From a virus (lineage: Duplodnaviria > Caudoviricetes), in IMG/VR virus record IMGVR_UViG_3300002895_000002, positions 128,001-192,000 of that record: 64,000 nt of DNA; one strand, written 5' to 3'. Shown piece after piece: positions 2,149 to 62,576 of the stretch. The number at the start of each line of letters is the position of its first letter. Within the stretch, counting starts at the first letter, position 1. Made by a program: the position numbers and the translations under genes. The notes beneath the pieces are model-generated. The model was given only the letters and a program-made list of their open reading frames with translations, had not been told where the DNA came from and searched no databases.

Positions 2149-3669
2149 ATGAAGACAAATACTGAACTTAAACAATTTATCAACGAAAAAATGAGAAGAT
2201 CTAATGGTCATCTCAACCCATATAAGTCCGAAAAATGGTTAAAAGAATTCCACCCAGATATTTTAGATGAAATTCTAAGATTGTCATCATTTCTTCCCAA
2301 AGATACACCATTTTCTCTAAGAATATATTGTATAGTTAATGATTTATATGAAATTCCAAAATGTGAATGTGGAAAAGATGTAAAATTATATCATTCTGGA
2401 TTTGCAAAATATTGTTCAAACCAATGTCATATGTCAAGCAAAGACAGAATAAACAAAATTAAAAAAACATGTATTGAAAAATATGGCACAGATAATGTAA
2501 GTAAAACTATCCATGTTAAGGAAAAAATAAAGCAGTCAAATTTAAAAACAAATGAATCTAGAAGTAAAAAAATAAGGGAATATCTAAGTAAAAAATACAA
2601 AGATCATAATATCTATTCATATCAAGAAGCAAATTTAGAACCACTAAATGATATATTTCAAAGTAGAAAATATCAACAATTCAGATGTATAAATTGTAAT
2701 CACCAATTTTCTTATATTCCTTTCATGCAGAATGGATTAAGATGTCCAAAATGCTTTCCCAAAAAAGAAAACAAAATTGAAATTTTACTCGAACAACATT
2801 TAAATAAACTAGGATTATCATTTATTCGAAATGACAGAACTCAAATAAACAAAGAACTTGATTTATTTTGTTCCGAACATAATTTTGCTATCGAAATAAA
2901 TGGAATGTTGTGGCATTCGTATGGGATATCAAAATATTCTTATCTAGATAATCTAATAAATGAAGATAAAAATAAACACATTAAAAAACTTAATCTTTGT
3001 AAAGAAAAAAATATTAGGCTATTTCAATTTACTGACATCGATATCTATAACCCTAAAAAATTAGAAATTATTTCATCAATAATAAATGTTTATTGTAATC
3101 AAGCCCAAAAGATTTATGCTAGAAAATGTGTTATAAAAGAATTATCACAGAAGGAACACGATGATTTTTTAGATGAGAATCATCTGATGGGAAGATGTAA
3201 TGCGAAGATTAGATTTGGTTTATTTTATGAAGATAAACTTGTTTTTGTGATGTCATTTTCAAAACCAAGATTCAAATCAAAAAATGAAAAATATGATTTT
3301 GAATTAATTAGGCTCTGTTCTATTAAGAATACAGTTGTGATTGGTGGATTTTCTAAAATTTTAAAATATTTAATTAAAAATAAAATAATTTTTGGAAATA
3401 TCATTAGTTATGTAGATGCATCATTCTCAGACGGAAAAGGATTTAAAACAAACGGATTCAAATTAATCAGACATTCAAATCCTAACTATGTCTACTATCA
3501 TCCATCTGGAAAAATTATAAAAAGATATGAAGCACAAAAACATAAATTATTAAAAATTTTAAATGATAAATTCGATCCTAATTTATCAGAAAAAGAAAAT
3601 ATGATCAATGCTGGTTATCGAATTTTTTATGATGCAGGAAATTATGTAATGACACTAAAACTTCAATAA
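2149..3669 (+). mobile_element. Free-standing homing endonuclease (Cys-rich Zn modules plus PD-(D/E)XK/Vsr-like domain and Hef-like C-terminus)
   Basis: Very AT-rich relative to its flanks; CECG..YCSNQC and CINC..CPKC; ELDLFCSEHNFAIEINGMLWHS; KIYARKC and ELIRLCS..VIGGFSK motifs typical of phage Hef-like HEGs. Confidence 0.75.
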
Positions 3670-3815: not shown

Positions 3816-4256
3816 ATGGAAAATAAAGACGAAACTACCTTGCTCGAAAAGGTCTATGCGAAGTTGAACGAGCTCCGGAAGGAAGCTGCGGAAGACATCA
3901 AAATAGACAAGGGGTCAATTGAAACCCAGTTCAACAGCCAGCAGAAGGTTGTGAAGTGGTTGAACAAGCGGATCGACTGGTATCGGTCTTATACGTCAAT
4001 CGAAGCCAAGCGAAAGGAAGCTTGGAAGAAGGCGTATGAATATTACCGGACTGATTACCCCATGAAGCTCAACAACGCTGAGGAATACCGGATGATGATC
4101 GAGTCAGATCCGACATATTCGGTGATTATGAACGAGGCGATTGCTATACAGGAAACCCTCTCATATATCGATTCGGTGATTGATGCTTTGAAAGGGCGAG
4201 CATTTGATGTATCCAATCTTTCAAAGTGGCTCATGTGGACCAATGGTAACAGGTAA
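3816..4256 (+). CDS. uvsY: Recombination mediator protein UvsY
   Basis: 146-aa helical protein (EDIKID..., YIESDP..., IDALKGRAFDVSN) next to uvsW as in T4-like phages. Confidence 0.75.
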   Translation: MENKDETTLLEKVYAKLNELRKEAAEDIKIDKGSIETQFNSQQKVVKWLNKRIDWYRSYTSIEAKRKEAWKKAYEYYRTDYPMKLNNAEEYRMMIESDPTYSVIMNEAIAIQETLSYIDSVIDALKGRAFDVSNLSKWLMWTNGNR

Positions 4257-4266
4257 GGAGAAACAA

Positions 4267-4737
4267 ATGAAGCTTGATTCGAGATTTGAAGCTCATTCAT
4301 TAACAAAAGCAATTCTGCCCTCAGTACTCAAAGGTCTTGGATATCTTTCCAGCGATGATTCAGAAAATGCCCGTCAGATGTACGGACCTCAGCAATTCAT
4401 CAGGGAAAGAGGAATAATTGGTTTGGTCCTTCCAAGACAAACCGGAAAGACCACTGCTCTCATTGATCTTTATGCTTTAATAAAGACTGCTGGGATGAAT
4501 GTTATCATTACCAGTAAATTCATAAGAATGAATGATAACATTCGGGCCAGAGTAATTGAGCGTTACGGTGTTGACCCAAGGGAGGATATGATTGAATACA
4601 CGAGACTCCCTGCTATCCTCATGGACGACAGAAAGGTGATTGACGTTGTTCTATGTGATGAGCACGACCCAGGGTCCCAGATCAATAATTTTCCTTCCCG
4701 AGCAACCAATACTCTCTTTGTGTTTTTCAAGACTTAG
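4267..4737 (+). CDS. Small hypothetical P-loop protein
   Basis: AAGGAG RBS before ATG 4267; LVLPRQTGKTT Walker-A-like motif and VVLCDE Walker-B-like motif. Confidence 0.55.
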   Translation: MKLDSRFEAHSLTKAILPSVLKGLGYLSSDDSENARQMYGPQQFIRERGIIGLVLPRQTGKTTALIDLYALIKTAGMNVIITSKFIRMNDNIRARVIERYGVDPREDMIEYTRLPAILMDDRKVIDVVLCDEHDPGSQINNFPSRATNTLFVFFKT

Positions 4738-4764: not shown

Positions 4765-4796
4765 ATGGGCGTAGAGAAATCTACGCCCATTCTTTT
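4765..4796 (+). terminator. Intrinsic terminator
   Basis: ATGGGCGTAGA-GAAA-TCTACGCCCAT then TCTTTT. Confidence 0.85.
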
Positions 4797-4857: not shown

Positions 4858-4923
4858 AATTTGACAGGTCCCGGATTTTCGTGTTATCCTTAAACCGTAG
4901 GTTGGGGCGGGGGTTCAATAGTC
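4858..4923 (+). repeat. G-rich promoter-containing repeat, copy 1 (inverted copy at 59044-59109)
   Basis: AATTTGACAGGTC (13 bp) and TGTTATCCTTAAACCGTAGGTTGGGGCGGGGGTTCAATAGTC (42 bp) are identical to the reverse complement of 59097-59109 and 59044-59085. Confidence 0.95.
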
Positions 4924-5010
4924 TTTATCCCTTATTATATCTGAGTCCTTTAGTTCCTCTCGAGATCCTCTAAGTCGCTTTAGATCCCATCTGTCTTGTC
5001 AAAAATCCCA

Positions 5011-5018
5011 TATAAATA
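5011..5018 (+). promoter_or_regulatory. T4-type late promoter for uvsW
   Basis: TATAAATA; (T/G)ATAAATA also occurs before many structural genes, e.g. near 22295, 31914, 36697, 47265 and 49069. Confidence 0.8.
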
Positions 5019-5039
5019 AAAGAAAACTCAGGGATTGTT

Positions 5040-6584
5040 ATGACAGACAGAAATCAAGTAACCATAACCAAGATAGATGAAGCAACGGTAGCTATTGACG
5101 CAAACCCCATCATCACTCAGGAGCTCATAAACTTCTTCTCGGTTTATGCTCCGAACTATCGTTGGGCCCCAGCATATAAGCAAGGTCACTGGGACGGAAA
5201 GATCCGGTTCTTCAACTACAGTAATCAGCTGCCCATTGGCCTTGTGAGTAAAGTAGCAGAATTCTGCCGCATGGGCCGGTATCCTCTCAAGATGGATTTC
5301 CAGACAGAGATCAAGCTGGACCAGACGGAGTTTACTCGGTTCGTTCATTCTCTTCATATCGTCGATGGAGATGGAAATCCGATGGAGCCGAGGGACTACC
5401 AGTTTATGTCTGCATTCGAGGCATGTTTCCGCCGACACATCTGCATGGAAGTTCCTACTGCTGGTGGTAAGACTCTGATCGCCTATATCATCGCTCGTTT
5501 CTTTGAGAAGATCGGGAAGAAGTTGCTTATCTGTGTCCCGAACGTATCTCTGGTCGAGCAGACCTACTCGGATTTCTTCTCGTATGGATGGGAAGACCTG
5601 TCTCAGTTTGTTCACATGATTTATTCTGGGAAAAAGAAAGATAGCTACTGCCCTGTGATTATCTCAACTTGGCAATCACTGCAACCAAAGCTGAAGGAGA
5701 ATCCTGAATATTTTGAACAATTTGATGGTTTGCTCATCGACGAAGCTCACGGAGCAAAAGCTACTGTCTTGAAAGACCTGACTGCTAAGTGTGTCAACGC
5801 TCAATGGCGTATGGGACTTTCCGGAACCTATCCAGACAGTAAATCTGCGGACTGGTACACAATCGTTGGTGGTCTCGGTCCGATCAAGAAATTCACTACC
5901 TACAAGGAACTCCAAGACAAGGGTCATATTGCAGGTCTGAAGATCTTTACTATCATTCTCAAGTATCCACTCTCAGTAAAAAGAGATTGCTACGAAAAAT
6001 GTGGGGATGATTATCACGTTCAGAACGATTATATCTACGGTCTTGAGTCAAGGAATGACTTCATAAAGAAGATGGTTTCTCAGCTCGACAAGAACGCTCT
6101 TGTTTTGTTCACAAAGATAGAAAAACATGGTGAGCCACTCAAGAAAATCTTGTCAACAATTCCCAAGAAGAGACTCATCTATATCGTAGGTGGAACTGAG
6201 GTCTCAGAACGGGAAATGAGTCGAGCTGTTGCTGAAAAAAGGGACGATGTAATTATTCTGGCCAGCTATGGCGTATTCTCTACCGGAGTGAACGTGAAAA
6301 ACATTCACTTCATTCTCTTTGCTTCTGGGTACAAGTCTCGGATCAAGGTACTCCAGTCTATTGGTCGGGGTCTCAGAAAGCACAAGGATAAGGTTGACCT
6401 TGTTCTCTACGATATTGTTGATGACATGAGCTTTACCAGCAAGAAGGACGAAATCCGGTTCATCAACCATTCCGTAAAGCATTTCAAGGAGCGGACGAAG
6501 ATCTATGATGAGCAGGGATTTACTCACAAGTATATCACCTACGAGATCAAAGACGAGAGCAAAACCGACCTAACAACTCTCTGA
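5040..6584 (+). CDS. uvsW: UvsW SF2 DNA helicase
   Basis: WDGKIRFF, PRDYQ, PTAGGKT, IDEAH, GLSGT, LQSIGRGLR motifs. Confidence 0.95.
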   Translation: MTDRNQVTITKIDEATVAIDANPIITQELINFFSVYAPNYRWAPAYKQGHWDGKIRFFNYSNQLPIGLVSKVAEFCRMGRYPLKMDFQTEIKLDQTEFTRFVHSLHIVDGDGNPMEPRDYQFMSAFEACFRRHICMEVPTAGGKTLIAYIIARFFEKIGKKLLICVPNVSLVEQTYSDFFSYGWEDLSQFVHMIYSGKKKDSYCPVIISTWQSLQPKLKENPEYFEQFDGLLIDEAHGAKATVLKDLTAKCVNAQWRMGLSGTYPDSKSADWYTIVGGLGPIKKFTTYKELQDKGHIAGLKIFTIILKYPLSVKRDCYEKCGDDYHVQNDYIYGLESRNDFIKKMVSQLDKNALVLFTKIEKHGEPLKKILSTIPKKRLIYIVGGTEVSEREMSRAVAEKRDDVIILASYGVFSTGVNVKNIHFILFASGYKSRIKVLQSIGRGLRKHKDKVDLVLYDIVDDMSFTSKKDEIRFINHSVKHFKERTKIYDEQGFTHKYITYEIKDESKTDLTTL

Positions 6585-6668: not shown

Positions 6669-7130
6669 ATGGCGAAGCGGGAAAAGAATCACTTCATCTC
6701 CAACGCGAGACTCACGGAAATACTTGGAGCTTGGGCAGATGAATGTCGAAAGAAGAAGGAAAAGGATGAACCCCATCCCCCTATGCCAGACGAGGTTGCA
6801 ATAGCGATTCTCCGGATGGTTGAGAAGTATGGCAGGATGTCGAACTTCTCGGGATATACCTATCTTGATGAGATGCAGTCCGAAGCAATCCTTACCTGCG
6901 TTCGCTATGCTCACAACTTTGACAGAAACAAGTCGAACAATGCTTTTGCCTGGATCACTCAAATCATCCATAACTCATTCGTTGCTGTGATCAATGATGA
7001 AAAGAAGGAAGCCCAGAAAAAGTTTGAACTCACCAAAGAACTCAACCCAAAGCTTGGAAAGTCAGACTTCCACGATATCAAACTCGACGATTCAAATTCC
7101 ATCTCAATCCCGGAAGGATTTTTGAACTAA
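6669..7130 (+). CDS. gp55: Late-transcription sigma factor
   Basis: NFSGYTYLDEMQSEAILTCVRYAHNFD..NAFAWITQIIHNSF matches gp55; synteny with gp47/gp46. Confidence 0.93.
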   Translation: MAKREKNHFISNARLTEILGAWADECRKKKEKDEPHPPMPDEVAIAILRMVEKYGRMSNFSGYTYLDEMQSEAILTCVRYAHNFDRNKSNNAFAWITQIIHNSFVAVINDEKKEAQKKFELTKELNPKLGKSDFHDIKLDDSNSISIPEGFLN

Positions 7131-12459: not shown

Positions 12460-12513
12460 TTGACAGAGAAGGGGTTTGGTTGTATCATGGAAACATGAAC
12501 ACCAAACCCCTTC
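12460..12513 (+). promoter_or_regulatory. Sigma70-type promoter embedded in a long inverted repeat
   Basis: TTGACA (12460)-17-TATCAT; arms GAAGGGGTTTGGT/ACCAAACCCCTTC plus inner TCATG-GAAA-CATGA. Confidence 0.8.
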
Positions 12514-12529
12514 ATTCGTAAGGAACGGC

Positions 12530-13945
12530 ATGCTTACCGAAAACCTGTTTTACCACCTTGTTGAAAGCGAAGATTTTTGGCGAATCGTATATCCCCACAT
12601 CAAGCTTGAGTACATCGTTGAAAACATCGATCGAATTCTGTTCCAAAAGATCAAGATGTATGAATCGATGTATACCAAACGTCCGAAGTGGGCGGACCTG
12701 AAATTACTGGTCGAATCTGATACAAAAATCTCAGAAAAAGACACCCAGGATGCGTTTGATCGGATAGAGGAATATCGTAACACCGACCAGGTAGGCGACC
12801 TCAAACTTTTGATTGATGAAACAGAGAAATGGGCTCAAACGCGAGCTCTAGAACTAGCCATTCTTGAGTCGGTGGATATCATCCAGGATCCCAAAAAAGC
12901 AAACAAGGGTCTGATCCAAGATCTCATCAAAGATGCTCTCTGTGTTCAGTTCCAAGTCTCGATTGGTCACGACTACTTCAAAGACGCACCAGCCCGGTTG
13001 GAAGCATACACCACAGACGACGAAGTAATTCCCTTCAAGTTTACCCAGACTCTGAACGAAATGATGAACGGCGGACTCCGGAAGTCTTCCATGTTCATCT
13101 ACTGTGCACCACCAAACAAGGGTAAGACTCTCATTCTCTGTGACAACGCATCCCAGCTCGTTGCTGCCGGGTTGAATGTTCTGTATGTTTCTGGTGAGAT
13201 GGCTGAGACAATGATATCAAAGCGAGTTGATGCTAACTTGCTTGATATCGACATGGACAATCTGTCATCTAAGGTTGACAAGAAGCAGTTCATGTCAGGA
13301 ATAAAAGATCTGTATGAGAAGTCATGTGGCCGGCTCATTGTCAAACAATATCCGGCAGGAACAGCCACAATCCACCATATTCGTGCTCTAATTCAAGAGA
13401 TCAAGCTCAAGAAGGGGATTGATATTGATGTCCTGGTTCTGGACTACCTGAACCTCTTTGCATCAACCAGACTTCCTTCTTCTGCAATGACCAATACCTA
13501 CCTATATGTCAAAGCAGTTGCAGAAGAGTTCCGAGGTCTATGTGTTGAGCTGAACATTCCGTGTATCACTGCAACCCAGATCAACCGAGGTGCAACAAAC
13601 GCTGCTCCGGACGCCGTTGACATGACGGGTATCTCTGATAGCTTTGGTATCGCAATGACAGCAGACTTTATGGCTGCAATCATTCAAACCCCAGAACTGT
13701 TCGAACAGAGTCTGTATCTACTGAAAGTAATCAAGTCTCGGTTCAAGGATAACATCAACGAGATCTACACCATTGGGGTTGATAGGCCAAAGATGAGACT
13801 AGAGGACGTTGATGATAGTAGGAAGCAAGTGCCAATCAATGTGAAAGACCAACTCGCAGCACAAGCTCGAGGAGTGGCTGATAAACAAAAAATAGCCGGG
13901 GTTGCGATGGTGAAGGAGCTGAAGGATGATGTGTTCGAGTTCTAG
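12530..13945 (+). CDS. gp41: Replicative DnaB-like helicase
   Basis: APPNKGKT, YVSGEM, VKQYPAG, VLDYLNL, TATQINR, DSFG motifs; AAGGA RBS before ATG 12530. Confidence 0.95.
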   Translation: MLTENLFYHLVESEDFWRIVYPHIKLEYIVENIDRILFQKIKMYESMYTKRPKWADLKLLVESDTKISEKDTQDAFDRIEEYRNTDQVGDLKLLIDETEKWAQTRALELAILESVDIIQDPKKANKGLIQDLIKDALCVQFQVSIGHDYFKDAPARLEAYTTDDEVIPFKFTQTLNEMMNGGLRKSSMFIYCAPPNKGKTLILCDNASQLVAAGLNVLYVSGEMAETMISKRVDANLLDIDMDNLSSKVDKKQFMSGIKDLYEKSCGRLIVKQYPAGTATIHHIRALIQEIKLKKGIDIDVLVLDYLNLFASTRLPSSAMTNTYLYVKAVAEEFRGLCVELNIPCITATQINRGATNAAPDAVDMTGISDSFGIAMTADFMAAIIQTPELFEQSLYLLKVIKSRFKDNINEIYTIGVDRPKMRLEDVDDSRKQVPINVKDQLAAQARGVADKQKIAGVAMVKELKDDVFEF

Positions 13946-23078: not shown

Positions 23079-23132
23079 TTGACATTCCGAAGGGTTGTAT
23101 GTATACTGGAAACAGTAAGTACAACCCTTTCG
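23079..23132 (+). promoter_or_regulatory. Sigma70-type promoter embedded in an inverted repeat
   Basis: TTGACA-17-TATACT; arms AAGGGTTGTA/TACAACCCTT plus inner TACTG-GAAA-CAGTA. Confidence 0.8.
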
Positions 23133-23149
23133 TGTGAAAAGGAACGAAC

Positions 23150-23185
23150 GTGCCAAACTTTCTACCATTCTTCCAGAAAAAATAA
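23150..23185 (+). pseudogene. Relic 5' end of the DinG-like helicase gene
   Basis: AAGGA RBS, then GTG-PNFLPFFQKK-stop versus the functional start MPNFLDFFEK at 24131. Confidence 0.7.
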
Positions 23186-26058: not shown

Positions 26059-26114
26059 TTGACAAATCCTCCCGAATCTGTTATTATTGAATAAAATGGA
26101 TTCGGGAGGATTGT
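26059..26114 (+). promoter_or_regulatory. Sigma70-type promoter whose spacer pairs with the downstream RBS
   Basis: TTGACA-17-TATTAT; AATCCTCCCGAATC/GATTCGGGAGGATT. Confidence 0.8.
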
Positions 26115-26312
26115 GTGAGCTTCAATAAAGCTATCAAGTCCGGCAAGGAAAAACGAAAACCATATCGAGGAGCAAAGAGTTACGATGTGTCCTGTCGTAA
26201 TCATGGATCCTGTGATTACTGCAAAAGCAACCGGATCCACTTTGATGAAGTAAAACGAAAGGCAGCAGATGCTGACCTTAACGAATTCAAAAAGAAGGAC
26301 AACAACGAATGA
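26115..26312 (+). CDS. Small hypothetical protein (CRNHGSCDYC)
   Basis: GTG start after GGGAGG. Confidence 0.7.
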   Translation: MSFNKAIKSGKEKRKPYRGAKSYDVSCRNHGSCDYCKSNRIHFDEVKRKAADADLNEFKKKDNNE

Positions 26313-57029: not shown

Positions 57030-58136
57030 ATGGAATTTAACAGCAAGAAAAATAGCGGATTTACTCTCATTGATAAGGGAATGTCCCAGATGCCGCCAGC
57101 GGCACAGGTTAACATCCCAACTCCGGATGGATCCCCGAAGCTTGTATACAACAAGGAGCTAACTGTTGAGGGATCTGTCGTCGAACCTGCTCTCACCTCT
57201 GCTGTTGCTACGGTAAAAGAGCTCCCGAAAGCAACAGAGTCCGGGATTCGGGCAGGATCACAGTGGCTAAAGGAACAGGTTGCTGTCGTTACTGAATCCC
57301 AGATCGTCAAAGATGCAAAGACCCTAGGGGAAGATGGGCTCAAGAAGGCTCAGGAAGCAAAGCAGGAATCATTGAGCTGGTATGCTGCAAAGAAGAAAGC
57401 TCTTGGAACCTGGGTTCAAAAGATCAACTGTTCGTTCCTGTCTAAGAATGATGCTAAGCCGGAAGCTCAACCACCAGCAAAACCTGAGACCAAGGGTGGT
57501 GCTAGAAAGATTGAAGAACCGGCTCCGACTATTACTCAGAATGTTTACGGAGAGACACGAGTCCTTGCTCTTGACAAGGCAGGTAACTCCATCACAACCA
57601 CCTCGTCTGAAGGTAACAAAACGATATTATTTCAACATGGATCCGGCACCTATCTCAAGATGGAGGACGGTGGTGGAACCCTTGATAAAACCCGGGACAG
57701 AAAACTTACGATTATCGATAAAAACTGGGAGATTTCCATAGGCGAAGATGAGATTAAATTAGTCTCTGGTGATCAGGTCGTAAACATCAAAAAAACTGTT
57801 CTGACCAATATAGAAGAAGATGAGAACCATAACGTTGATGGTGAGCGGTCGATTAAGGTCGGTCAGAATCAACTTCACGATATAGGAAAGAATGATACTA
57901 CAACTGTTGGTGCTGACAGAACTCTGTCTGTTGCAGGTAAAGAAGAGATTAAGGTTGGAGGGGATTCAACAACGACAATCATGGGTGGTGAAACAAGGAC
58001 GATCAATACCCAATTGACTATCACTGTCAATGGTCCGATCTCTGTAAATTGCATGAGTGCAGACATTACTGCTCTCTCCATGGCTAAAGTCAAATCACCA
58101 ATCATTCGGTTACTTGGCCGCATAATGATGAACTGA
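57030..58136 (+). CDS. gp5: Tail spike gp5, C-terminal beta-helix part
   Basis: HGSGTYLKM followed by 8-residue V/I-x-G repeats. Confidence 0.8.
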   Translation: MEFNSKKNSGFTLIDKGMSQMPPAAQVNIPTPDGSPKLVYNKELTVEGSVVEPALTSAVATVKELPKATESGIRAGSQWLKEQVAVVTESQIVKDAKTLGEDGLKKAQEAKQESLSWYAAKKKALGTWVQKINCSFLSKNDAKPEAQPPAKPETKGGARKIEEPAPTITQNVYGETRVLALDKAGNSITTTSSEGNKTILFQHGSGTYLKMEDGGGTLDKTRDRKLTIIDKNWEISIGEDEIKLVSGDQVVNIKKTVLTNIEEDENHNVDGERSIKVGQNQLHDIGKNDTTTVGADRTLSVAGKEEIKVGGDSTTTIMGGETRTINTQLTITVNGPISVNCMSADITALSMAKVKSPIIRLLGRIMMN

Positions 58137-58155: not shown

Positions 58156-59016
58156 ATGCCAATTGATCCAAAATATATACCTGAGATACCGTCCAGCTTC
58201 CAAATCGGTAATAACGGAAACCAACTCAACAAAGAGTTGAAAGCTGATCTCCGCAAAGTTACCCAGTCCGGCCCTCAAGCTGTTATCTGTAATGCTATTC
58301 TTGCTGAATATAACATGGCTGTTAAGACTTTGGATACACTGACACTCAGCTACCGAGTCCTGCAGGAAGAATTGAAAGGTGCTCTTTCCGTCTATGACCC
58401 ATCTTGGTATGATGCAGCAAATAAGGGAATCAACCAAGTAGGTAATGGCGTTGAAAATATGAATCCCCAGACCACAATGACTGGGGCTCAGGCAGAACTG
58501 GCGAACGTGATGACCCAAGCATGCCCGGATATTGCAAACGTGATTCCGGATTCATTAAATAAAACAATCGCGGAATTCAAAGAGCTGGGTGGTATGGTAG
58601 GATCAGCCGCAGCAACATGTGCTAAACAGCTCGGAAAAGATGTTCTGACCTCTTTAAAGAATATGACTTCAGGAATGAAGATGGGGAAGATGGATGATTT
58701 ACTTGGAGCGGCAAAAGCAATCATAATTACTCCCATCAAAGCTATTGAAACTTTTCTCGAGGTTACTGGTGCTCTCGGATTCTTGAAGATTCTGAAAATG
58801 GCCGAGGCATGTTTGACGAAACAAGGCCTTTGTGGTTTTGACCGAAGAGTATTCGTTCGTCCGGGAACAAACCAGACTCAGTACGAATATTTTTCAAGAC
58901 TGCTTTGCGTGAACGAGAACGGGGAATTTGATCTGAAACTGCTCACTGACGTGGATCGCCAGAAGGCTGATCAAATCTCAACCCTCTACAAAAAATACAA
59001 AAAAGTTTCTGGATAA
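58156..59016 (+). CDS. Hypothetical late protein
   Basis: TAAATA upstream; 286 aa, helical. Confidence 0.65.
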   Translation: MPIDPKYIPEIPSSFQIGNNGNQLNKELKADLRKVTQSGPQAVICNAILAEYNMAVKTLDTLTLSYRVLQEELKGALSVYDPSWYDAANKGINQVGNGVENMNPQTTMTGAQAELANVMTQACPDIANVIPDSLNKTIAEFKELGGMVGSAAATCAKQLGKDVLTSLKNMTSGMKMGKMDDLLGAAKAIIITPIKAIETFLEVTGALGFLKILKMAEACLTKQGLCGFDRRVFVRPGTNQTQYEYFSRLLCVNENGEFDLKLLTDVDRQKADQISTLYKKYKKVSG

Positions 59017-59043
59017 TCTCAAGAGGAATCTAAACGACTAAAC

Positions 59044-59109
59044 GACTATTGAACCCCCGCCCCAACCTACGGTTTAAGGATAACATGAGATCGAGCGACC
59101 TGTCAAATT
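59044..59109 (-). repeat. G-rich promoter-containing repeat, copy 2
   Basis: Reverse complement of 4858-4923 (42-bp and 13-bp identical blocks). Confidence 0.95.
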
Positions 59110-59171: not shown

Positions 59172-59200
59172 TTGACATCCCTCCCTCATTCTGTTATCAT
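59172..59200 (+). promoter_or_regulatory. Sigma70-type promoter
   Basis: TTGACA-17-TATCAT, 6 nt before ATG 59207. Confidence 0.8.
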
Positions 59201-59206
59201 CAAAAC

Positions 59207-59614
59207 ATGATAATAACGGAACAGGTAAATGTAGGTATTGTAGGTTCCCGTCGAAGAGATTCAGATGAAGATCTGGTCCTGACGAGAGTGTCCCTCCAAA
59301 AGCTCATTGAGCAATACGGACAGGGAAACATTACTCTAGTCTCCGGGGGCTGTCCAAAGGGAGGTGATCGTTTTGCGGAAATTCTAGCTAAAGAGTTTAA
59401 CCTACCAATCATAATTCATTATCCAGACAAATCGAAGATGCCGGAAACCCCAAAGCGGTGGGATTACGCAGTTATAGCGTATGCAAGAAACACCTTAATC
59501 GCTCGGGACAGTGATATCCTCCTTGCCGTCGTATCGTCCGACAGGAAAGGCGGCACGGAGGATACTATCAAGAAGTACCTGAAGATGGGCAAGAAAAATC
59601 TCATATTAGTCTAG
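59207..59614 (+). CDS. SLOG / DprA-Smf-like Rossmann-fold protein
   Basis: VGIVGSR, VSGGCPKGGD, ARNTLI, GGTEDT motifs. Confidence 0.8.
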   Translation: MIITEQVNVGIVGSRRRDSDEDLVLTRVSLQKLIEQYGQGNITLVSGGCPKGGDRFAEILAKEFNLPIIIHYPDKSKMPETPKRWDYAVIAYARNTLIARDSDILLAVVSSDRKGGTEDTIKKYLKMGKKNLILV

Positions 59615-62221: not shown

Positions 62222-62272
62222 TTGACATCAAACCTCCCTCATGTTATTATTGATTTACGACATGAGGGAGGT
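62222..62272 (+). promoter_or_regulatory. Sigma70-type promoter whose spacer pairs with the downstream RBS
   Basis: TTGACA-17-TATTAT; perfect 13-bp IR ACCTCCCTCATGT/ACATGAGGGAGGT. Confidence 0.85.
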
Positions 62273-62276
62273 CACA

Positions 62277-62576
62277 ATGAAAATCACCAATAAGATCCGT
62301 AAACCACTTTCCAAAATTACCCACTCCGTTTCCACTGTCAGACATAATTCCCTCACTGACGCACTAAACATCATCGAGAAAGAAGGCCTCGAACCTCTGG
62401 GCCTGGAACTTCAGAACGAAGACGGCACCCCGTTTGGTGCGATCTTTTGTGGTGAAGAAGGTACTGCTTATATCAGGTTCGGAAACGCTGAAGAGATGGT
62501 TGATAACTCCCTCCTAGTATATTACTGGCACAAGCTGTCAAACAACCGTTGGGAAATCAACGCTTACTTTTCATAA
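62277..62576 (+). CDS. Hypothetical protein
   Basis: GGGAGG RBS; 99 aa. Confidence 0.7.
   Translation: MKITNKIRKPLSKITHSVSTVRHNSLTDALNIIEKEGLEPLGLELQNEDGTPFGAIFCGEEGTAYIRFGNAEEMVDNSLLVYYWHKLSNNRWEINAYFS

Follow-up and report, generated by a model that had tools for sequence, protein, structure and literature searches.

The genome of an uncultured T4-like phage contains four copies of a short cassette in which a strong early promoter is fused to a conserved, G/T-rich sequence at the start of the predicted transcript. Copies 1 and 2, both located in the 64,000-nucleotide stretch of DNA analyzed here (the window), lie at the sites of two mapped replication origins of phage T4 and have the same direction. 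As start sites for DNA copying, the cassettes are credible, as candidates only. The reading favored here, held tentatively, is that they are transcription-primed replication initiation sites, counterparts of T4 oriF and oriE. Nearly as likely is a role as a source of non-coding RNA or as a class of promoter under special regulation.

The window is part of a 213,116-bp IMG/VR virus record with homologues of uvsY, uvsW, gp55, and gp5. To our knowledge, replication origins have been mapped experimentally in T4 but hardly in its many distant relatives. No description of the cassette was found in the literature on T4 origins or on PeSL cassettes. It recurs at uvsY, at gene 5, and at two further, evenly spaced sites, and is kept there in relatives, which gives four precise origin candidates. 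If confirmed, they would indicate that a defined sequence can specify a promoter-primed origin, and would suggest that some factor reads the core. If the cassettes produce regulatory antisense RNAs instead, they would represent an unreported layer of control at the borders of late-gene blocks in a one-strand genome.

Sequence of Copies 1 and 2

A repeat scan places copies 1 and 2 in the arms of a 69-nucleotide inverted repeat, I1 (4858-4926, + strand, and 59041-59109, - strand), which is 88% complementary. The two copies share an identical 13-bp block, AATTTGACAGGTC, around the -35 hexamer, and an identical 42-bp block that begins at the TG of the extended -10 and ends in CAATAGTC. The spacer between these blocks matches at 4 of 11 bases. 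Chance sharing of an exact 42-mer within 64 kb is essentially impossible, and two identical blocks that flank a diverged spacer suggest selection, which fits better than a single conversion tract.

Both promoters are TTGACA-18-TATCCT with a TG upstream of the -10 and match the consensus at 10 of 12 positions in a consensus scan. A motif farther downstream, TCCTCT(C/T)GAGAT, is common to copy 1 (4954-4966) and copy 2 (59016-59028). The original prediction, made from the letters of the window, had described the 42-bp and 13-bp identity around a diverged spacer, the promoter, and a further shared downstream motif, and it is borne out on all of these. The features of the two copies are as follows:

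4858-4890, + strand: copy 1 promoter, with the AATTTGACAGGTC block, the -35 at 4861-4866, an 18-nucleotide spacer, and the TG-extended -10 TATCCT at 4885-4890
4891-4923, + strand: copy 1 conserved core, 33 nucleotides, G/T-rich; initial transcribed sequence, with the start expected near G4897
4954-4966, + strand: copy 1 downstream pyrimidine-rich motif TTCCTCTCGAGAT, common to copies 2 and 3
59077-59109, - strand: copy 2 promoter, with the -35 hexamer at 59106-59101 and the TG-extended -10 TATCCT at 59082-59077
59044-59076, - strand: copy 2 conserved core, of the same sequence as the copy 1 core, with the start expected near 59070
59016-59028, - strand: copy 2 downstream motif TTCCTCTTGAGAT, which abuts the stop codon of the opposite-strand 286-aa ORF

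The transcribed part of copy 2 also contains an 8-nucleotide unit, CTAAACGA, repeated 2.4 times (59030-59048). Copies 1 and 3 have one unit each of an CTAAACGA-like stretch.

Gene Context of Copies 1 and 2

The genes and signals that surround the two copies in the window are as follows:

3816-4256, + strand: uvsY-like recombination mediator gene (phrog_231, E 3e-12)
4204-4737: 177-aa ORF between uvsY and copy 1
4765-4790, + strand: intrinsic-terminator-like hairpin of 11 pairs with a T-run, at the end of the unit formed by uvsY and the 177-aa ORF and immediately before copy 1
5010-5017, + strand: TATAAATA, the T4-type late-promoter consensus, 22 nucleotides before the uvsW ATG
5040-6584, + strand: uvsW-like helicase gene, served from upstream by copy 1 as its early promoter, through a leader of about 145 nucleotides
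6669-7130: gp55-like late sigma
57030-58136, + strand: gp5-like baseplate hub gene (Gp5_trimer_C), towards which the copy 2 transcript would run antisense
58156-59016, + strand: 286-aa ORF after gp5, without a family match; its 3' end is the first antisense stretch that copy 2 would transcribe
59172-59200, + strand: TTGACA-17-TATCAT, an early promoter of the ordinary type that faces right, divergent from copy 2, and serves a SLOG-like gene (59207-59614)

Copy 1 thus lies between uvsY and uvsW, and uvsW has its own late promoter at 5010-5017, both as had been predicted. Copy 2 had been described as firing antisense into the end of the structural operon with no gene to serve. Copy 2 does point that way, and the minus strand contains no plausible ORF downstream of it. 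The 286-aa ORF, searched as a single sequence and as an alignment, had no match in JGI metagenome contigs or IMG/VR. The genome contains 27 instances of TATAAATA on the + strand and 14 on the minus strand, where approximately 7 per strand are expected. This excess is consistent with putative T4-type late promoters read by the gp55-like sigma.

Just upstream of uvsY, a 506-aa HNH/homing-endonuclease-like ORF (2149-3669) lies in an island of 28% G+C (genome mean 45.6%). Other endonuclease genes, NUMOD3 ORFs, are present elsewhere in the uvsY block of two relatives (L009 and L010).

Four Copies in the Genome

The element had been predicted to be present twice. The genome has four copies. Copy 3 (genome 37664-37725, minus strand), found in a whole-genome scan, has the promoter, matches the core at 25 of 33 positions, and retains the TCCTCTTGAGAT motif downstream. 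Its promoter has TTGACA with a TG-extended -10 and 10 of 12 consensus matches. Copy 4 (genome 91331-91395, + strand), identified in a promoter census, is looser, with approximately 77% identity to copy 1 over the -10 and the core, as counted by hand. A profile built from all members found no further copies in the genome, and the core never occurs in the genome without the promoter.

Copies 2 and 3 each lie between two + strand genes and point against them, with a rightward early promoter directly behind. No ORF and no terminator-like site was found downstream of either copy. They are the only minus-strand promoters with TTGACA and a TG-extended -10 that lie outside + strand ORFs across the 213 kb. 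Copies 1 and 4 are the only copies with an upstream hairpin, each having a strong terminator hairpin just upstream; copy 1 leads into uvsW and copy 4 into a 218-aa ORF. No paralogy was found among the ORFs that adjoin the four copies.

The topoisomerase II large-subunit gene that adjoins copy 3 (genome 37922-39535) encodes 537 aa, compared with approximately 650 aa in relatives. Due to this shorter length, the gene appears to be split, as are T4 genes 39 and 60.

The copies lie at genome 37.7 kb (copy 3), 91.3 kb (copy 4), 132.9 kb (copy 1), and 187.1 kb (copy 2). On a circular map, the gaps between them are 53.6, 41.6, 54.2, and 63.7 kb. With four random points, a minimum gap this large has a P of approximately 0.01 in a test that was post hoc.

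One way to read copies 1 and 2 is as recombination sites for the inversion of the 54-kb segment between them. The inverted repeat with its 42-bp identity would be a suitable substrate, and the phage encodes UvsX, UvsY, and UvsW. This is the least probable of the readings considered, as copies 3 and 4 do not fit an inversion pair and relatives keep the cassettes despite their differing cores.

Cassettes in Relatives

Uncultured relatives were found by protein searches of ENA and Logan assemblies. The nearest uvsW proteins of cultured phages, from cyanophages and pelagiphages, are at most 38.7% identical, and the uvsW search in IMG/VR returned only relatives with at most 38% identity.

The closest relative (L009, uvsW 81% identical) has two tandem cassettes in the uvsY-uvsW gap. 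They are of the same build with a different core, GTCGGTCGGCCGTTAGAATAT. L014, from the same sample as L009, has the GTCGGTCGGCCGTTAGAATAT core on the minus strand, right after a homologue of the ORF that precedes copy 3 and ahead of the topoisomerase II gene. On its + strand, L014 has another cassette variant, which resembles the core of the studied phage. L016 and L017, with gp5 73% identical, have a minus-strand cassette right after the pair of gp5 and the 286-aa ORF, as in copy 2. The uvsW gap is gone in a 70% relative (L010), and the cassette is located between gp23 and uvsY, in the sense of uvsY. L015 has the L010 core type on the minus strand before the topoisomerase II gene.

An alignment of 11 members has in common AATTTGACA, a spacer of 17 to 18 nucleotides, a TG-extended -10, and then a G/T-rich stretch. 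This stretch is 16 to 20 nucleotides long, starts about 7 nucleotides after the -10, and ends in an AATA-N-AG-like motif. The cores can be sorted into three types, which grade into each other. In relatives, the types do not follow the loci; one type is common to L010 and L015, and L016 resembles L009 and L014. Sequence conservation ends about 30 to 60 nucleotides after the start, which places the function at or just after initiation. Worth noting is that the promoter-core unit has persisted at three junctions across three lineages, even in two copies that face the wrong way and have no gene to express; we therefore take it to be functional.

The uvsW and gp5 loci of relatives at 61%, 50%, 48%, and 41-43% identity have no recognizable cassette. 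One relative with at most 61% identity has a bidirectional terminator at the place equivalent to copy 2. Because the family is missing from the 61% relative (L012, L067), it is not an ancient fixed feature.

Core patterns, both exact and degenerate, returned either nothing from IMG/VR or chance 14-mer matches without promoters. A BLAST search of the copy 1 region against GenBank phages gave no match. A 20-mer of the core has six matches in bacterial genomes, five of which are in one conserved coding stretch of alphaproteobacterial MAGs whose translation looks like murB. All six matches were treated as a coincidence of codons and not as a host link.

In L014 (an 81% relative), a minus-strand DUF7487 ORF (4989-5924) is inserted between the cassette and the topoisomerase gene, and the second, rightward cassette variant (4890-4960) fires antisense into it. 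In L062 (a 50% relative; 3336-3440), uvsY lies at a strand-switch point, and ahead of it come an early-type promoter, its strongly hairpinned leader, and TATAAATA, in that order. No homology to the studied core was seen.

G Runs, Hybrid Stability, and Base Composition

The original prediction had proposed a G-tract or hybrid G-quadruplex, citing the G-tracts of ColE1 RNA II and mitochondrial CSB II, which stabilize primer RNA-DNA hybrids. In this mechanism, the nascent RNA and the non-template strand would lock the primer RNA on the template. The G runs of copies 1 and 2 (GG, GGGG, and GGGGG within 14 nucleotides) invite this reading. A G-rich stretch in a promoter-driven transcript could, in the studied phage only, stabilize an RNA-DNA hybrid as in those two systems. 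The energy of the RNA-DNA hybrid was compared with that of the DNA duplex from +1 to +30, using nearest-neighbor values (Sugimoto 1995; SantaLucia 1998). The predicted hybrid advantage of copies 1 to 3 is in the top 2-6% against 92 ordinary promoters.

The proposal does not hold across the family. A canonical G-quadruplex, defined as four runs of at least three G separated by 1 to 7 nucleotides, is absent from every member. A two-tetrad pattern is present only in copies 1 and 2 and the + strand cassette of L014, and is thus absent from copies 3 and 4 and from all but one relative copy. The cores of relatives have only GG or GGG runs and an average hybrid advantage. The long G run is not essential, because relatives lack it. 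The G-tract is a peculiarity of the studied genome and not a conserved property, the resemblance to ColE1 RNA II and CSB II is by analogy only, and a G-quadruplex lock is very improbable as the function of the cassettes.

The A+T content from +29 to +78 is 0.58-0.72 in copies 1 to 4, 0.44-0.70 in relatives, and 0.57 ± 0.07 after the 92 ordinary promoters. The 50 bp downstream are not distinguishably more AT-rich than those after ordinary promoters (0.60 vs. 0.57, P 0.12), and an unwinding element does not stand out. GC skew had been suggested as a check for origins. Cumulated along the genome, GC and AT skew both rise monotonically without turning points; GC skew is dominated by one-strand transcription and carries no signal for or against origins.

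Comparison with Mapped T4 Origins

The T4 RefSeq record places oriF at the start of uvsY and states that the "primer RNA is same as transcript for gene uvsY". It places oriE at 79355, in the 3' part of gene 5 and in the (-) strand direction, with a primer RNA that is the complement of the gene 5 transcript. A third origin, oriA, is in gene 56, 11 kb from gene 39. Copy 1 (with the L010 cassette) matches oriF and copy 2 matches oriE in both place and direction. Copies 3 and 4 have no counterpart among the annotated T4 origins.

The minimal T4 oriF and oriG are approximately 100 bp and consist of a promoter and an A+T-rich unwinding element (PMC3016281). T4 R-loop formation requires no specific sequence, and the T4 origins have no common motif (PMC3016281). 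With no recognizable motif, T4 origins are not predictable from sequence.

The cassette resembles oriF in several ways: the promoter lies at uvsY and would also drive a gene, the minimal unit is short (a promoter and about 50-60 bp downstream), and a uvsW helicase gene with a late promoter is adjacent. The L010 cassette is directly upstream of uvsY in the same sense, and copy 1 is one small ORF downstream of uvsY. The T4 promoter is a MotA-dependent middle promoter, whereas that of the cassette is a plain sigma70-type early promoter. The unwinding element of T4 is A+T-rich and may be of any sequence, whereas the block in the cassette is G/T-rich, conserved in sequence, and not unusually AT-rich. 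No sequence similarity to T4 oriF was seen.

T4 oriE has an early-mode promoter on the 3' side of gene 5 that opposes the late transcript of the baseplate genes (T4 record; PMC3016281). Copy 2 and its orthologues in L016 and L017 share this place and direction. The T4 transcript encodes RepEA and RepEB, whereas copy 2 has no ORF. T4 has an evenly spaced cluster of 12-nucleotide iterons; Tandem Repeats Finder found none at copy 2, only the 8-nucleotide unit repeated 2.4 times and a 9-nucleotide unit repeated twice. Copy 2 is also 0.9 kb beyond gp5, after the extra 286-aa ORF, and not inside gene 5.

Origins of the T4 type have a promoter that is active before or at the onset of replication, and the promoter sequences of copies 1 to 3 are predicted to be of this kind. 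The locations that mark oriF (uvsY) and oriE (the 3' end of gene 5, antisense) are both occupied by cassettes. Only this coincidence of place and direction helps to tell the proposed functions apart, and it favors origins. It is weakened by the fact that the borders of gene modules attract promoters anyway.

As replication initiation sites, the cassettes would work as follows. A strong host-sigma70-type early promoter (AATTTGACA, a spacer of 17-18 nucleotides, and a TG-extended -10) is fused to a conserved G/T-rich block that would form the first 30 or so nucleotides of the transcript. This block ends in the AATA-N-AG-like motif, which is followed by a pyrimidine-rich patch. Host RNA polymerase would fire from the cassettes right after infection. 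The promoter-proximal RNA would stay on the template, or be processed on it, and its 3' end would prime leading-strand synthesis. The leftward promoters of copies 2 and 3 are back to back with a rightward early promoter, so the DNA between should be underwound. In this scheme, the transcription, the R-loop, the priming, and any core-reading factor are inferred.

The conserved extent of about 30 to 60 nucleotides agrees with the approximately 100-bp minimal T4 origins (PMC3016281) and lends tentative support to replication initiation. Also in keeping with origins are the constant pairing of core and promoter, the ORF-less minus-strand copies 2 and 3, the homologous cassettes of relatives, the even spacing of the four copies, and the high predicted hybrid advantage in the studied phage. 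Because T4-type R-loops need no specific sequence, strict conservation of the core is not explained by priming alone. It suggests recognition or processing by a specific partner, and not mere hybrid stability. Against origins, copies 1 and 4 double as ordinary promoters that provide leaders to uvsW and the 218-aa ORF, the family is absent from the 61% relative, and the cores of relatives have an average hybrid advantage. By analogy with T4, where the oriE and oriF transcripts are both messages and primers, the two functions would not be mutually exclusive.

The original prediction had proposed a pair of convergent transcription-primed origins. Promoter-led sites at the place and in the direction of T4 oriF and oriE remain of this proposal; the pair does not, since there are four copies. 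As an origin, the cassette would belong with the promoter-primed origins of T4, but would be sequence-defined and common to all sites. A broader claim, that all origins in this T4-like clade share one sequence-defined cassette of an early promoter and an initial transcribed core of about 30 nucleotides, is unlikely. If true, it would mean that this lineage has its own dedicated core-reading factor, for example an initiator, a nuclease that processes primers, or a helicase loader, which co-evolves with the core.

Regulated Promoters or Non-Coding RNA as a Possible Alternative

The cassettes may instead be specially controlled early promoters or sources of non-coding transcripts, with the first 30 or so nucleotides acting as an operator, a pause site, or an RNA tag for a phage or host factor. 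This possibility ranks just after replication initiation. Copies 2 and 3 would yield RNAs complementary to the 3' ends of the genes upstream of them, or would stop read-through by head-on transcription. Copies 1 and 4 would provide a regulated leader for uvsW and the 218-aa ORF.

The conserved core sequence, always at a fixed distance from the -10, would be expected of such elements, as would the antisense direction of copies 2 and 3 without an ORF. Each core contains a -10-like hexamer with A2 and T6 (AATAGT, TAGAAT, or GAATAT) located 19-26 nucleotides after the true -10, which can be likened to a sigma-dependent pause site. A CCUCU-like patch follows the core in the studied phage and in L009. 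The expected start falls within a short palindrome, AACC-N3-GGTT, which takes the form GAACCGTGGTTC in L010 and L015. The positions of the palindrome and of the pause-like hexamer, however, vary across the three core types, and the coincidence with the T4 origin loci is left unexplained.

The RNA form of this reading has further points against it. Folding of single copies and of all 11 members gave z values of -1.2 to +1.7 relative to shuffled sequences, with no shared fold. This predicted lack of folding would argue against a structured RNA and would be compatible with an RNA that stays unpaired. No terminator-like 3' end was found for the predicted transcripts, and no Rfam match at the gathering score is present in the whole window. 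The window contains no tRNAs. Sites in the genome complementary to the core, with G-U pairs allowed, are within the range of those for shuffled cores.

Relation to PeSL Cassettes

Repeated cassettes of a terminator and an early promoter are present in T4-like phages, where they mediate shuffling (PMC2839356, PMC4122927). The cassettes described here could be mobile promoter cassettes of this PeSL type, spread and homogenized by phage recombination as recombination substrates, with a core that has no function of its own. This is improbable, though less so than a G-quadruplex lock. Like PeSLs (Arbiol 2010, Comeau 2014), they are repeated early promoters in a T4-like genome, and copies 1 and 4 follow strong terminator hairpins. 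The mixing of core types between loci in relatives, and the ordinary early promoters of this genome with spacers complementary to Shine-Dalgarno regions (described below), are also in keeping with this reading.

PeSLs are many, lie in hyperplastic regions, and consist of a stem-loop and a promoter. The cassette family differs in having only four copies, which lie at conserved core-gene junctions and not in variable regions. It is defined by sequence after the promoter, so that the conserved block is downstream and not in a stem-loop. Place and orientation are kept across lineages, and the identical blocks around the diverged spacer of copies 1 and 2 favor selection over a single conversion tract.

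Ordinary Early Promoters

The genome census counted approximately 60 ordinary early promoters, nearly all on the + strand, like the genes. Those at window positions 62222-62290, 26059-26125, 23079-23150, and 12460-12530, along with about 55 more genome-wide, have the form TTGACA-17-TGTTATTAT. The spacers of these approximately 60 promoters are pyrimidine-rich and complementary to the Shine-Dalgarno region about 20 nucleotides downstream. As a result of this complementarity, read-through RNA could fold so that the ribosome site is buried in a hairpin whose loop contains the -10. In this respect, the ordinary promoters resemble the PeSL cassettes of T4-like phages.
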